A DNA stretch of 26,900 bases. Origin: Solirubrobacterales bacterium. GTDB taxonomy: Bacteria > Actinomycetota > Thermoleophilia > Solirubrobacterales > 70-9. The notes below the pieces were generated by a model. The model was not told the DNA's origin, searched no databases, and saw only the letters and a list, made by a program, of their open reading frames with translations. The DNA is taken from positions 1-26,900 of the forward strand of contig DASTYR010000240.1 of the NCBI GenBank assembly GCA_035764795.1, read 5' to 3'. Positions 1,488 through 25,084 of the stretch are shown here, one piece after another (the stretch's first letter is position 1; every line of letters begins with the position of its first letter). The translations under genes and the position numbers were made by a program.

Positions 1488-1511
1488 AGTGTATCTGCGG
1501 CCCGATACGGT
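1488..1511. promoter_or_regulatory. Back-to-back leaderless -10 elements (TACACT for dnaX, TACGGT for the membrane protein)
   Basis: Each TAnnnT hexamer lies 7 nt from a GTG start (1480 on -, 1519 on +), and neither start has an SD. Confidence 0.6.
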
Positions 1512-1518
1512 CCCGCGC

Positions 1519-3063
1519 GTGCCGAGCCGGGCCCGCAACTGGTTGACGCCCGCCGCCTGGGTCGCCGCGGTCTCGGCGGTCCTGCTGGCGATCTTCCCGT
1601 CCGGCTTCCCCAACTACGACACGATCTACAGCCTGCTTTGGGGCCGCGAACTGGCCGATGGGCTGAGCCCCGACCGCGGCGCCGCTCTACCGCCGACCCC
1701 CCACCCCCTCGCCGAACTCTTCGGCCTGGTGACGAGCCCGTTGGGCGACGGAGCAATCGACCTGACCATGGTCGTCGCCTATGTCGCCCTGGGCCTGATC
1801 GGCTACCTCGTCTACCGGCTCGGCTCGCTCTGGTTCGACCGCCCGATCGGCGCCCTCGCGGCGCTGATCCTCCTCACCCGCGCCCCCTACCTCTCCAACG
1901 GCCTGCGCGCCTACATCGACCTCCCCTACATCGCCCTGGTCCTCGCCGCCCTCGTCATAGAGACCAAACGCCCCCGAGCCGGCTGGCCCGTCCTAGCCCT
2001 ACTCGCATTGGCCGGCCTCCTCCGCCCCGAGGCCTGGCTCTTCAGCTTCGCCTACCTCGCCTATCTGGCAATCGATCCTGAGCAGCTCCGCCTCCGTATC
2101 GAGCGCTTCCGCGAGACGAAGCGGCCGGAAGAGGGGATGGGGATACCCCTCGAACGGGCGGATACTCAAAACGCCGGCCTAATTAGGCCGGCGTTTGTCC
2201 GGGCGAGGGGTATCCCCATCCCCTCCCCCCTCGTCCTTCTCGCGTTTTCAGCCCCACTTATGTGGGCCTTGTTCGACTGGATCACGGCTGGCAGCCCCAC
2301 GTATTCCTTTACCGGGACCAGGGAGACCGTCGAGACCCTGGAGCGCCAGACCGGCCCGGTCGACCTCGTCCTCTACGGCCCCCGCCGCCTCGGCGAGGTC
2401 CTGCAGTGGCCAGGCATGGTCGGCGCCGCAGCCGGTGTCGCCCTCGGCCTCGTCTTCCTGCGGCGCCGCAGCACCGTAGGCGTCGTCGCCGCGGCGCTCG
2501 CGCTCGCCGCCTTCGCGATCCTCGCCTGCGCCGGCCTAGCGATCATCCCCCGCTACACGATGCTGGCTGCGGCGATCCTCGCCGTCTTCGCGGCGCTCGC
2601 CCTGCTCGGCTGGCGACTGCTGCCGGGCGGGCACCGCTGGCACCGGCCGTGGCAGGCCGTCGCCGCAGCGGTCGCGGTCCTCTTCGTCCTCTGGGCGCCG
2701 AACCAGTACGACCTGCTGCACCGAGTCGACGTCGACCTGACCAACCAGAGCGAGATCGAGACCGACCTCGACGATCTCGCCTCCTCCGGCGCCTTCGATC
2801 CCCTTTGCCTCCCTGTCTCCGCACCCAACCACCGCGCCGTCCCCCGCCTCGCCTGGGATCTGGACATCCGCCCAAGCCGGATCGTCAGCTCGAGCGAGCA
2901 GCGCCAACCCCGCCGCGGCTACTTCCTCGATCCCTCCGGGCCGTTCGTCGTCCACAACTTCGTCCTCGACCCCAACGACCCGGCCCGGCTCGAGACCCCG
3001 GTGCCGCCCGGCTTTCGCCGCGCCGCGGCGAACGAGTCCTGGGTGCTCTACCGGCGCTGCTGA
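1519..3063 (+). CDS. Multi-pass membrane protein, GT-C fold glycosyltransferase-like
   Basis: Many TM segments, an early NYD motif in the first loop, and 'LAGLLRPEAW' and 'PRY' motifs typical of GT-C-like proteins. Start moved to GTG 1519 on the basis of the -10 position. Confidence 0.7.
   Translation: MPSRARNWLTPAAWVAAVSAVLLAIFPSGFPNYDTIYSLLWGRELADGLSPDRGAALPPTPHPLAELFGLVTSPLGDGAIDLTMVVAYVALGLIGYLVYRLGSLWFDRPIGALAALILLTRAPYLSNGLRAYIDLPYIALVLAALVIETKRPRAGWPVLALLALAGLLRPEAWLFSFAYLAYLAIDPEQLRLRIERFRETKRPEEGMGIPLERADTQNAGLIRPAFVRARGIPIPSPLVLLAFSAPLMWALFDWITAGSPTYSFTGTRETVETLERQTGPVDLVLYGPRRLGEVLQWPGMVGAAAGVALGLVFLRRRSTVGVVAAALALAAFAILACAGLAIIPRYTMLAAAILAVFAALALLGWRLLPGGHRWHRPWQAVAAAVAVLFVLWAPNQYDLLHRVDVDLTNQSEIETDLDDLASSGAFDPLCLPVSAPNHRAVPRLAWDLDIRPSRIVSSSEQRQPRRGYFLDPSGPFVVHNFVLDPNDPARLETPVPPGFRRAAANESWVLYRRC
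2131..2225. repeat. Palindromic intragenic element B, in frame in the membrane protein
   Basis: Perfect 22-bp inverted arms at 2131-2152 and 2204-2225, plus a perfect 28-bp central palindrome at 2169-2196. Confidence 0.92.
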
Positions 3064-22275: not shown

Positions 22276-23223
22276 ATGCCCCTGCCCCTTTCGCCGCCGC
22301 TCAAGCCACAGCTGGCGCTGACCCGCAAAGCGCTGCCGCGCGGCGACGAGTGGGCCTACGAGCAGAAGCTCGACGGCTTCCGCGCCATCGTCTTCGTCGA
22401 CGGCAGCGACTCCTACATCCAGTCACGGGGCGGCAAACCGCTCTCGCGCTACTTCCCGGAGCTGAGCTTCAGTCCCGGCCGCTACGTGCTCGACGGCGAG
22501 CTGGTGATCTGCGACAACGAGGGAAACGTGGAGTTCGACGCGCTGCAGAGTCGCCTCCACCCGGCCGAGTCTCGGATCAAGCTCCTGGCCGAGCAGATTC
22601 CCGCCGGGCTGCGCGTCTTCGACCTGCTCGCCGAGGACGACGAGGCGCTGCTGGAGACGCCGTTCGGCGAGCGGCGGGCGCGCTTGGAAGGACTGGCGCC
22701 GAGCCTGGGACTCGAGCTGACCGAGCTGAGCGACGACCCGGAGCGAGCCGAGCAGTGGCTGCGGACGACCGAGGGGGCGATGGCAAAGCAGCTCGACGCC
22801 CCCTACGAGCCGGGCAAGCGACGCGGGATGGCGAAGATCAAGCGCGAGCGGACGATCGACTGCGTCGTGATGGGGTGGCGGCCCGGCAAAGAGGAGGGCA
22901 CCGTCGGTTCGTTGATCCTCGGCCTCTACGACGGCGGCGAGCTGCGATCGGTCGGCCACATCTCCGGCTTCAGGGCCCAGATGAAACGGGACCTGCGCCA
23001 GCTGCTGGCACCGCTGGAGACGGGTGAGCGGGGCAGCGCCGAGCCGAGCCGTTGGGCGGCCGAGCGCGACCTCGAGTGGGTTGCGTTGCGGCCCGAGCTG
23101 GTGATCGAGGTCGGCTATGACCACGCCGCCGCGGGGCGGATCCGGCACGGGGCGCGGTTTCACCGGTTCAGGGACGACAAGGCGCCAGGCGAGTGCCGGT
23201 TCGAGGATTTGGACGAAGGCTAG
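22276..23223 (+). CDS. ligC: ATP-dependent DNA ligase, LigC-like
   Basis: [11 protein letters not shown] (KxDG), VLDGEL, VFDLL, EGAMAK and an OB domain with '[27 protein letters not shown]'. Confidence 0.85.
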
Positions 23224-24330
23224 AAGAGGGTTGACTGAGCGCTCTGGCCAGCGGGTCCTGTCGCCGCAGGGGACCCACCGCCCCTTCCGGTAGCTAAAGC
23301 TTCCTCAGAGGCGGTTCCCCCTACGGCGCCACCCGCTGGAGAGTTGTCTTTCCGGGACAGCTTCGGTCCGGCCGCTCTTCGCCTAGATGCGCCGGAGCGG
23401 CCCCAGCCGCGGACCACTTTCGTCACCTGACCTCTCTCTTGGGCTGGCAAGTACGCTCGACCGCCTGCATAAAGCTGTTCGTAGCGGGGGATCAGGTCGG
23501 GGCGTTTGGCTTCGAGCCAGGCGAAAAAGACGTCGCGGACCTCGTCGCGGAGATGGAGGGCGACGCCGCCTAGGAAGGTTGCACCGGCCTCGCGAGCTCG
23601 GTCGACGAGGGGTTGGACCTGGTCGGGATGGTCGTTGATGCCAGGCATCAGCGGGGCAATCAGGACGCCGGAGTCGATGCCGCGGCGGCGTAGCTCGGCG
23701 ACGGCGTCGAGGCGGGCCGCGGGGCTCGGGGTGTGCGGCTCGGTCTGTCGCCAGACCTTCTCATCGAGGGTCGGGATCGAGAGGTTGACCGAGACGGGAA
23801 GTCGCTTCGCCATCCGCTCGTAGATCTCGATGTCGCGCAAGAGCAGCGGCGACTTGGTGAGGACGGAGACCGGCGTCGCCGCAGCCTCCAGCGCGGCCAG
23901 AATCTCCGGCATCATCCTGTAGCGGTTCTCGACCCACTGGTAGGGGTCGGTATTCGTCCCCAGCGCCACCAGATCCCGCTCCCAGCTCGGTCGCCCCAGC
24001 TCCACCCGCAGCAGCTCCGGCACGTTCACCTTCACCACGATCTCGCGCTCGAAGTCGCGCCCAGCGTTCAGGTCAAGGTAGGTGTGAGTGCGGCGGGCGA
24101 AGCAGTATCGGTAATCGACAGGCGTGGGTGCAACCGCGGAAGGGATTGATCGTCCAGTTGAACCCGTATCGCCCGCCGGGCACCCGATTGAGGGCCGACT
24201 TAGCCCTTATCTCGTGAAACCGGATACCGAGTGCCTCGGGCGCATCGAAAGTTCGGACAATCGCTTCCTCGGCCAGACCGAACAGCCTGCCTTCGCCCTC
24301 CTTGTCCATGCGTTGTTCGTCCCAGCGCAT
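23220..24330 (-). pseudogene. Rv2578c-family (SPL-like) radical SAM gene, frameshifted inside CxxxCxxC
   Basis: MRWDEQ...KSALNRVP...INPFRGCTHAC is in one frame and RYCFARRTHTYLD...ALGTNTDPYQ is in the +1 frame. There are 7 extra nt at 24111-24117. Confidence 0.85.
23251..23336 (+). repeat. 86-bp palindromic intragenic element A, copy 2 (radical SAM C-terminal tail)
   Basis: 80/86 identical to the reverse complement of 207-292. Confidence 0.95.
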
Positions 24331-24331
24331 A

Positions 24332-24345
24332 CGAACACATGTTCG
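24332..24345. promoter_or_regulatory. LexA (SOS) box
   Basis: CGAACACATGTTCG matches the Gram-positive/actinobacterial CGAAC-N4-GTTCG consensus. It lies 1 nt upstream of the radical SAM start codon. Confidence 0.9.
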
Positions 24346-24431
24346 CATAGAATGTATCCGTGGTCAATGCCCCGCCAAAGCCCCTCCTTCAGGTCCAGCG
24401 TCAAGCAGTGGCCTGGAGAAAGGAGGTGCCG

Positions 24432-24488
24432 ATGGCAGAGATTGCATTGATCATGCTCCTGCTCCTGCTGCTCCTTCGGGTGACGTAG
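24432..24488 (+). CDS. 18-aa hydrophobic peptide MAEIALIMLLLLLLLRVT, candidate type I toxin
   Basis: SD AAGGAGGTG, single TM-like core, anti-SD in the leader and a downstream complementary segment. Confidence 0.7.
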   Translation: MAEIALIMLLLLLLLRVT

Positions 24489-24495
24489 GCGGAGC

Positions 24496-24523
24496 GCCGG
24501 CCGGGGCTGCGACCCCGGCCGGC
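24496..24523 (+). other. 11-bp GC hairpin in the peptide 3' UTR
   Basis: GCCGGCCGGGG-CTGCGA-CCCCGGCCGGC. Confidence 0.8.
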
Positions 24524-24539
24524 TACTGACGCCGGACAC

Positions 24540-24569
24540 AGAAAAGGCCCGGCGGCCCGGGCCTTTTCT
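24540..24569. terminator. Bidirectional intrinsic terminator
   Basis: AGAAAAGGCCCGG-CGGC-CCGGGCCTTTTCT, with a T-run after the stem on both strands. Confidence 0.85.
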
Positions 24570-24592
24570 AAGGCAGAAACTGCATTGATCGC
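24540..24592 (-). ncRNA. Candidate antisense antitoxin sRNA (about 52 nt)
   Basis: TATACT -10 at 24598-24603 on the minus strand. Its 5' part (24572-24590) is complementary to 24434-24452, and it ends at the terminator. Confidence 0.6.
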
Positions 24593-24622
24593 CCGGAAGT
24601 ATAACCCGCAGCCTGCTTGCTG

Positions 24623-25084
24623 CTAGGGCAGCTTGCCGGCGATTACGTACCGCAGAACCGCCACCACCTGCTCGGCCGTGCGGGCCGTGGCCTGGGCGGC
24701 GCGGTCGACCTCCTTGAGCGCGTGGTCGAGATCGGTGTCGTGGAGGGTGACGATCGGCTTGCCGAGGGCAGCTGCGAAACCGGCGTCAAAGGCGGCGTTC
24801 CACTGGCGGTACTTGTCGCCGAAGCGGACGACGACGACGTCGGCGTCGCGGATCAGCGTCTGGGTGCGGACGGCGTTGACGCCGGCGCCCATGTGGTCGC
24901 GCCAGAACGGGCTCTCCTCGGGGCCGAGAGTCCCCACGCCGGCGTCGTCGGACGCGCCGTGGTCGGTGACCGGCGCCGTGAACTCAACCGGCAGACCGGC
25001 CTCGCGCACCCCCGCCTCGATCCGCTCGCGCCAGTCGGAATGGATCTCACCCGCCAGGTAGATGCGCCAGGTCCGCTCGCTCAT
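24623..25084 (-). CDS. ytoQ: YtoQ family protein (nucleoside deoxyribosyltransferase-like fold)
   Basis: IYLAGEIHSDWRE, DHGASDD, VVRFGDKYRQWNAAFDAG and HALKEVD motifs. Confidence 0.92.
   Translation of the reverse strand: MSERTWRIYLAGEIHSDWRERIEAGVREAGLPVEFTAPVTDHGASDDAGVGTLGPEESPFWRDHMGAGVNAVRTQTLIRDADVVVVRFGDKYRQWNAAFDAGFAAALGKPIVTLHDTDLDHALKEVDRAAQATARTAEQVVAVLRYVIAGKLP

Follow-up and report, generated by a model that had tools for sequence, protein, structure and literature searches.

The 26,900-nucleotide (nt) stretch of contig DASTYR010000240.1 analysed here (hereafter, the window) contains at 24348-24603 a self-contained and unannotated module of ~255 bp, for which the best explanation is an organization like that of a type I toxin-antitoxin system, with a candidate small RNA on the minus strand as the antitoxin half and a short hydrophobic peptide encoded on the plus strand as the putative toxin. 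Judged from its sequence, this RNA is likely to be an antisense RNA that is made from a promoter of its own and represses a toxic peptide linked to the SOS response. The source assembly (GCA_035764795.1) is a metagenome-assembled genome (MAG) of 1.8 Mb in 348 contigs (77% complete) from an uncultured, high-G+C soil member of the Solirubrobacterales (class Thermoleophilia, phylum Actinomycetota). Transcription of both RNAs, repression, control by LexA and toxicity of the peptide are what we infer from the features described below, the coordinates of which are collected in Table 1.

A repeat pair links the peptide gene to a candidate convergent RNA

The two repeat copies, R1 and R2, form a 19-nt direct repeat with identity at 17 of 19 positions, which was detected by a repeat finder and was the top direct match of this length within 24300-24700. 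The same identity was reached in one out of 300 dinucleotide-preserving shuffles of that region, and the repeat described in the initial annotation is thus real. R1 begins at the G of the ATG (24432-24434) and ends with the final base of codon 7 in an 18-codon open reading frame (ORF). The initial annotation had further proposed that a minus-strand RNA would pair over all 19 nt of codons 1-7, with both differences becoming G-U wobbles, and this was borne out by computation: the two mismatches between R1 and R2 (G versus A and T versus C) turn into G-U and U-G pairs, giving 19 pairs out of 19 with the minus-strand R2 RNA. The duplex in the window was predicted at -33.7 kcal/mol, compared with a mean of -16.1 kcal/mol for shuffled seeds (z = -5.7). 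Predicted duplex energies in 20 homologues ranged from -27 to -42 kcal/mol, and for 18 homologues the cognate seed was among the top five of 20 seeds when ranked by this energy.

Table 1. Features of the candidate module and its surroundings (positions refer to the window)
Feature	Position	Strand	Description
LexA (SOS) box CGAAC-N4-GTTCG	24332-24345		2 nt upstream of the peptide -10 box; common to the divergent radical-SAM gene
-10 box TAGAAT, putative peptide mRNA promoter	24348-24353	+	6 nt before GTGATCAAT
Predicted 5' end of the toxin mRNA, R0	24360-24370	+	GUGGUCAAUGC; inverted repeat I5
Anti-Shine-Dalgarno arm	24380-24398	+	GCCCCUCCUUCAGGUCCAG; pairs with 24409-24429; inverted repeat I6
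Shine-Dalgarno region	24415-24427	+	GGAGAAAGGAGGU; nearly invariant across homologues
18-codon ORF, candidate toxin	24432-24488	+	MAEIALIMLLLLLLLRVT and stop; after a strong Shine-Dalgarno sequence
Repeat copy 1 (R1), target site	24434-24452	+	GGCAGAGATTGCATTGATC; G of AUG through codon 7
G+C-rich hairpin, 11 bp	24496-24523	+	Directly after the stop codon; inverted repeat I3; no U tail
Candidate small RNA, ~55-60 nt	24534-24593	-	Free 5' seed, then terminator hairpin and U tail
Bidirectional intrinsic terminator	24540-24569	both	Perfect 13-bp arms, A run upstream and T run downstream; between R1 and R2
Repeat copy 2 (R2), candidate antitoxin 5' seed	24572-24590	-	GGCAGAAACTGCATTGATC on the plus strand; GAUCAAUGCAGUUUCUGCC on the minus strand
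-10 box TATACT, putative small-RNA promoter	24598-24603	-	7 nt upstream of the seed

Covariation and strand polarity of the repeats

R2 was present in 20 of the 21 homologues that had enough downstream sequence, and R1 and R2 were both retained in 20 homologues, in which the identity of the flanks went down to 71-82%. With the A of the ATG counted as +1, the 19 columns of these 20 homologues make up 380 cells. Each homologue could form between 16 and 19 of the 19 pairs, and positions +11 to +20 were paired in all 20. At +11, the R1/R2 combinations were TT (2), GA (3), TC (7), CC (7) and GG (1), that is, 10 Watson-Crick pairs, 10 wobble pairs and no mismatch; at +13 they were CC (15), TT (4) and TC (1), and at +15 TT (16) and CC (4). 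In a tree built from the locus without R1, the T-to-C change at +15 appeared in two separate clades and R2 carried the matching change every time, for which at least three parsimony events are needed, and the change at +13 marked a third clade. The covariation across homologues to which the initial annotation had looked was therefore found, with both repeats changing together and pairing preserved.

The differences between the two copies also showed a direction. R1 and R2 were identical in 323 of the 380 cells, and the 57 differing cells included 29 that were G/A or T/C (compatible with wobble pairing) versus 5 that were A/G or C/T. When R1 was taken as plus-strand RNA and R2 as minus-strand RNA, 352 cells could pair, as compared with 328 under the opposite assignment, the gap being due to this imbalance. 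Permutation of R2 among the genomes reached the observed pairing 0 times in 20,000, a count that does not translate into an exact probability because related genomes are not independent. It should be noted that one of the two wobble classes raises the G+C content of R2 and the other lowers it, so that neither gene conversion nor base composition accounts for the bias. Moreover, the similarity between R1 and R2 stopped sharply at +21 (A versus G in 17 out of 20 homologues), which is where the small RNA would start. We hold it more likely than the full interpretation given at the outset that R2 has been selected to pair, as minus-strand RNA, with the start region of the peptide mRNA.

Alternatively, R2 might be a relic without function, left by partial duplication of the 5' end of the peptide gene, kept similar to R1 by gene conversion and not involved in any pairing. 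The observations that R2 begins with ATG in 13 of the 20 homologues and that R1 and R2 can recombine (as in the deletion in genome G069, described below) would fit such an origin. However, gene conversion yields identity rather than a 29:5 excess of G-U-compatible differences in one strand assignment, and it leaves unexplained the edge at +21, the constant place of R2 between the terminator and the -10 box and its retention at 20 loci; R2 also has neither a Shine-Dalgarno (SD) sequence nor a conserved reading frame. We consider this explanation very improbable. A second coding copy at R2 was likewise rejected, there being no SD sequence and no frame.

The candidate small RNA and its putative promoter

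The terminator at 24540-24569 was scored on the minus strand by a terminator scan and showed compensatory changes in homologues; as far as its sequence and place allow us to judge, it is common to the peptide mRNA and the small RNA. In the predicted fold of the small RNA, a seed of ~20-30 nt was largely unpaired and the hairpin provided most of the -29.5 kcal/mol (z = -4.2). The initial annotation had described an RNA of about 52 nt with the seed at its 5' end and its 3' end at the shared terminator, an arrangement that we retain with a revised length of ~55-60 nt. It had also likened the pair to non-overlapping antitoxins of limited complementarity. The complementarity is indeed limited, but strict non-overlap probably does not hold, as both RNAs would include the terminator hairpin.

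The TATACT hexamer that the initial annotation had placed just upstream of the seed runs from 24603 to 24598 on the minus strand, where the plus strand reads AGTATA, and is conserved at a fixed spacing. Among the 20 homologues, the hexamer was TATACT in 17, TATAAT in 2 and TATGAT in 1, with T1, A2 and T6 invariant in all; the spacer between box and seed was 7 nt in 19, and a G was found two bases 5' of the box in 18. The sequence of the spacer and the region further upstream were variable, with large indels, and no conserved -35 element could be observed upstream of the box in the 20 homologues. Promoters consisting of a -10 element only are the common type in Actinobacteria, and a conserved box with free flanks is the pattern expected of such a promoter, from which transcription is predicted to start at ~24590-24593.

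The minus-strand gene downstream in the window encodes YtoQ (PF11071, E = 3.6e-63), and the initial annotation had left two sources for the seed, a separate promoter or the 3' untranslated region (UTR) of ytoQ. If the 3' UTR of the convergent gene (ytoQ here) were the only source of the seed, a separate promoter would not exist and TATACT would have some other role. In every context, 20-60 nt separate the end of a minus-strand gene from the box downstream of it, and read-through from this gene to the shared terminator would contain the seed; the lack of a -35 element at the small-RNA promoter points in the same direction. Against this, the substitutions in the box occur only at tolerant positions, and its three invariant bases and fixed 7-nt spacing are kept amid variable flanks. 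Moreover, where the module has a neighbour other than ytoQ the box is found with it, and the 3' flanks of ytoQ in genomes without the module have no such box. Because the box travels with the module in this way and is absent from module-less sites, we favour a promoter belonging to the small RNA itself, and the 3' UTR of ytoQ as the sole source appears quite unlikely. Against Rfam, the locus produced nothing but chance matches below threshold (rsmX, mmgR, Thr leader and L17 leader), whether gathering thresholds or E <= 1 were applied.

The peptide gene and its predicted mRNA

The length of the ORF was 18 codons in all 22 intact homologues, and the ratio of non-synonymous to synonymous changes (pN/pS) over codons 8-18 was 0.21, which indicates purifying selection. 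The Leu codons varied freely, and Arg16 was encoded by CGG, AGA or AGG among homologues. Such purifying selection together with synonymous variation demonstrates that the ORF is truly coding, with the conserved peptide pattern E3...LIMLLLLL(I/L)LR16. On the other hand, codons 5-7 (GCA/GTA, YTG, ATC) showed hardly any nucleotide change, even at the third position of codon 5, whereas other codons varied synonymously, and we thus suggest that the constraint on codons 5-7 is on the RNA sequence itself. A Leu leader-peptide attenuator was also considered and rejected, because in all loci with R2 the gene that comes next is convergent, and a plus-strand ORF after the peptide gene was seen in locus L116 only.

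The putative -10 box of the peptide promoter, a conserved TANNNT, varied among TAGAAT, TAGTAT, TACAAT, TAGCAT and TATTGT and was always located 6 nt 5' of an almost invariant GTGATCAAT. In the consensus fold of 18 homologues, the 5' end of the mRNA (columns 1-7) was paired with columns 92-98, which correspond to codons 6-8, and in the minimum free energy (MFE) fold of the window mRNA (-113 kcal/mol, z = -4.9) nt 1-11 were paired with nt 85-95 (codons 5-8). This helix was backed by conservation and wobble changes only, with no double compensatory changes. The anti-SD arm (columns 26-38) was paired in the consensus fold with columns 54-70, and this pairing was accompanied by wobble changes and two double changes. 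The hairpin at 24496-24523 had compensatory double changes at 5 of its 11 pairs and may be an I-shaped terminator or a 3' stabiliser; if the toxin mRNA in fact ends at this hairpin, there would be no overlap between the two RNAs.

The predicted 5' end of the mRNA (R0) and the small-RNA seed share the sequence GNGAUCAAUGC, and the two would therefore compete for one target. The three copies of GCATTGATC/GATCAATGC in R0, R1 and R2 could also be read as DNA operators for a regulatory protein acting at both promoters, given that the same GNGATCAATGC sequence lies at about +1 of each. However, the joint changes of R1 and R2 at +13 and +15 are not followed by R0, the wobble-type asymmetry would be meaningless for a DNA site, and there is no regulator gene in the module. 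Of the explanations examined here, this one has the least to recommend it, and we think it extremely improbable.

Distribution, insertion and decay of the module

DNA searches identified the module in 12 out of 162 genomes of the genus to which the window belongs (its own genome included). BLAST searches of 400 further genomes of the order, in which 92 other genera were sampled, revealed no module outside the genus, any more distant relatives being beyond the reach of DNA similarity. A pattern scan of metagenome contigs added 12 more soil loci with the same peptide gene; a separate pattern scan of genome contigs was too loose, with only 9 of its 37 matches in Solirubrobacterales. The genomic context was variable: the module was located between a Zn-dehydrogenase gene and serA in genome G061, and after a SnoaL-like gene at locus L117.

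Genomes of the genus without the module provide a view of the empty site. In these genomes, the stop codon of the convergent gene (ytoQ or another) comes within ~15-95 nt after the LexA box, and the sequence after the box is unrelated, with neither TAGAAT nor AGTATAG. As both -10 boxes are absent from such sites, both are part of an insertion of ~255 bp. At three module-less loci (L057, L062 and L063), unrelated terminator-like hairpins were found ~30-90 nt past the LexA box and before the convergent gene (for example, GCATTTGGGGGTC-CATA-GACCCCCAAATGC), so that this spacer is a hot spot for small insertions.

Decayed copies were also found, with damage in both halves of the module. In genome G014 (L042 / L009, aligned to 24430-24470), the ORF is broken by two deletions, one of 4 nt after the ATG and one of 6 nt in the Leu run, and the -10 box of the small RNA is TATCCT; the metagenome locus L111 is an intact close relative of this copy. 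In genome G069 (L048, ~1500-1640, minus strand), the body of the ORF and both hairpins have been lost, leaving a single hybrid repeat (ATGGCAGAAGTTGCATTGATCG...), a deletion that evidently arose by recombination between R1 and R2. The SD sequence of this remnant (GGAAAGGGGATG) is degraded and its small-RNA -10 box has lost one base. Finally, a diverged homologue of the peptide (MTDLALIMLLILLLLRQT) was detected at L116 (1060-1600), where it is accompanied by a LexA box and a -10 box; a different hairpin follows the peptide gene there, and beyond it lies a plus-strand ORF of 77 residues that has no match in Pfam.

The LexA box and the gene neighbourhood

Among the 18 homologues for which 140 nt or more of upstream sequence was available, 16 carried the motif GAAC-N4-GTTC, at -98 to -101 from the ATG. 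The same motif was identified directly upstream of lexA in genomes G154 and G100 and upstream of an impB/mucB-family (Y-family) polymerase gene in G154, and on the basis of these two genes we regard CGAAC-N4-GTTCG as the LexA box of this lineage. About 50 genomes without the module retain the box, so that it is primarily that of the divergent radical-SAM gene, and from its position the module appears to have been placed such that its promoter falls under an existing LexA operator.

Other observations concern the neighbouring genes. The putatively LexA-controlled radical-SAM gene is split in the window into two minus-strand ORFs (24073-24348 and 23220-24038), with PF04055 in the C-terminal part only; its likely true start is the ATG at 24330-24328 (MRWDEQ), which lies beside the LexA box and is kept in all relatives. 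An ATP-dependent DNA ligase gene (PF01068/PF04679; 22228-23223, plus strand) is convergent with it. On the other side, a gene for a two-domain dCTP deaminase-like protein (PF06559/PF22569; 25081-26244, minus strand) lies upstream of ytoQ with a 4-nt overlap. The neighbourhood is thus oriented to nucleotide metabolism and repair. In addition, four genomes (G000:C129:1582-1595, at L132, and also G108, G154 and G100, at L130, L135 and L129) have a conserved LexA-type box (CGAACCCATGTTCG or CGAACCTATGTTCG) upstream of a gene of the alpha/beta-hydrolase / peptidase S9-like type, and this gene is a candidate for an unusual member of the SOS regulon.

Proposed mode of action and weighing of the evidence

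In the mechanism that we propose, the plus strand would give rise to an mRNA of ~210 nt for an 18-residue hydrophobic peptide of membrane type, and the LexA operator 2 nt from its -10 box would allow this mRNA to be made only after DNA damage. The mRNA would fold shut, with its 5' end on codons 5-8 and the anti-SD stretch over the ribosome-binding site. The convergent small RNA of ~55-60 nt, made from the -10-only TATACT promoter on the minus strand, would pair through its single-stranded seed with the mRNA from the G of the AUG through codon 7 and block ribosome binding, and the resulting duplex might be a substrate of RNase III. The two RNAs could first meet through their complementary terminator hairpins, as in par of pAD1. 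Production of the peptide would begin only once the SOS-induced mRNA outruns the small RNA, and the peptide would then act on the membrane.

Several observations weigh against a type I system of this kind. At L116, the peptide gene has been kept and both R2 and the bidirectional terminator are absent. Three loci have no LexA box, so that SOS control is not an inherent property of the module. The peptide promoter lacks a -35 element, and a scan with the sigma-70 consensus, which requires a -35 element, gave no -35/-10 pair and no promoter for either RNA; the poor -35 of the small RNA had already been remarked on in the initial annotation. Transcripts of the convergent gene that read through into its 3' UTR would also carry the seed. 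Gene conversion between R1 and R2 is physically possible, as the recombination in G069 illustrates, and could explain part of their concerted change. The uninterrupted hydrophobic stretch of the peptide is only 12-13 residues long. Finally, searches of sequencing runs found only soil DNA runs, which covered small parts of the stretch, and no RNA run.

The short hydrophobic core would also suit a different role for the peptide, in which the RNA pair is real and the product is an SOS-induced small membrane protein with a physiological function, the small RNA setting a threshold for its expression. The module is single-copy and chromosomal and adjoins repair genes (radical SAM and ATP-dependent ligase), as might be expected in that case. 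On the other hand, the layered repression predicted here (LexA box, closed fold, hidden SD and antisense pairing at the start codon) is the hallmark of type I toxins (PMC7472228, PMC4147584), and the patchy spread of the module (12 out of 162 genomes), with its independent decay and deletion, is easier to reconcile with a dispensable, selfish or costly module than with a housekeeping factor. A physiological role is accordingly rather unlikely in our view, and a toxic peptide held in check by the small RNA is the interpretation that we retain.

Significance and comparison with known systems

According to a paper of 2025, the type I systems found to date are confined to Proteobacteria, Firmicutes and Tenericutes (PMC12390103), and there is debate about their narrow distribution (PMC5367252). 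Our search of the literature found no type I system in actinobacteria. [quoted passage not shown] To our knowledge, these bacteria lack Hfq, and their promoters are of the -10-only type. Such a candidate would also demonstrate that a par-type design can be joined with SOS control, which are known from Enterococcus and Escherichia coli, respectively. The size of ~255 bp and the natural decayed or deleted variants also make the module a compact test case for synthetic reconstitution, and it illustrates the regulatory content that ORF-based annotation misses in MAGs from soil.

With respect to the peptide, the size class is that of the Ibs/Sib systems of Escherichia coli (listed in PMC4147584), whose toxins have 18-19 residues and are almost entirely hydrophobic; the Sib RNAs are fully overlapping cis-antisense RNAs, and Ibs/Sib are not known to be under SOS control. 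We know of no sequence similarity between Ibs and the module peptide. In the general definition of type I systems, the toxin ORF is usually under 60 residues and hydrophobic, and the ORF of the module has 18 codons under selection. Toxins of the Fst/Ldr superfamily have ~33 residues, with a hydrophobic domain that contains a PXXXG(C) motif and a charged C-terminal tail (PMC7472228). In contrast, the module peptide has 18 residues, no Pro or Gly in its conserved core, no PXXXG(C) motif and the tail R-V-T, and it is thus not an Fst homologue.

Control by LexA would parallel that of tisB, dinQ and symE, the antitoxins of which are, however, divergent and bind the 5' UTR (PMC4147584). The predicted organization of the module resembles tisB/istR-1 of E. 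coli in having a LexA-controlled gene for a small hydrophobic peptide, a structurally closed mRNA and a constitutively encoded small RNA with ~20 nt of complementarity (PMC4147584). Unlike the module, however, tisB and istR-1 are divergent and IstR-1 binds at a standby site within the 5' UTR, well away from the ribosome-binding site, whereas the predicted target here extends from the AUG to codon 7; TisB has 29 residues compared with 18 and shows no sequence relationship to the module peptide. Similarly, the dinQ/agrB (LexA-controlled as well), shoB/ohsC and zorO/orzO pairs of E. coli share with the predicted organization of the module a limited complementarity and an antitoxin located beside, and not opposite, the toxin gene (PMC4147584), but they are divergent, pair in a long 5' UTR and have no shared terminator. 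IstR-1 and OhsC, which the initial annotation had cited as precedents, are thus not the closest ones, since they are divergently encoded and bind the 5' UTR (PMC4147584), and par, with Fst and RNA II, is closer.

The closest architecture is that of par (Fst / RNA I - RNA II) on plasmid pAD1 of Enterococcus faecalis and in its chromosomal relatives. In par of pAD1, convergent promoters face each other, direct repeats cover the initiation site of fst and a bidirectional terminator is shared; complementary terminator hairpins start the interaction, and intramolecular helices hide the SD sequence and the 5' end (PMC7472228, PMC4147584). Likewise, the two putative genes of the module face each other across one bidirectional terminator, with conserved -10 boxes on both sides, and a direct repeat, oppositely transcribed if both RNAs are made, gives complementarity over the translation-initiation site of the putative toxin. 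Helices in the mRNA sequester the SD sequence and the 5' end in both the consensus and the MFE folds, and the predicted antitoxin is a small RNA of the same class (about 40-60 nt). In contrast to par, which has DRa and DRb, the module has a single repeat pair; no conserved U-turn loop was seen in it, its host is a high-G+C actinobacterium rather than a Firmicute, and a LexA box accompanies the toxin promoter in most copies. As a tentative scenario, which on balance we doubt, the module may have reached a par-like design independently and then been captured under a LexA operator, with the seed being a copy of the 5' end of the toxin mRNA that would displace this end from codons 5-8, blocking the start codon and exposing the 5' end to decay in one step.

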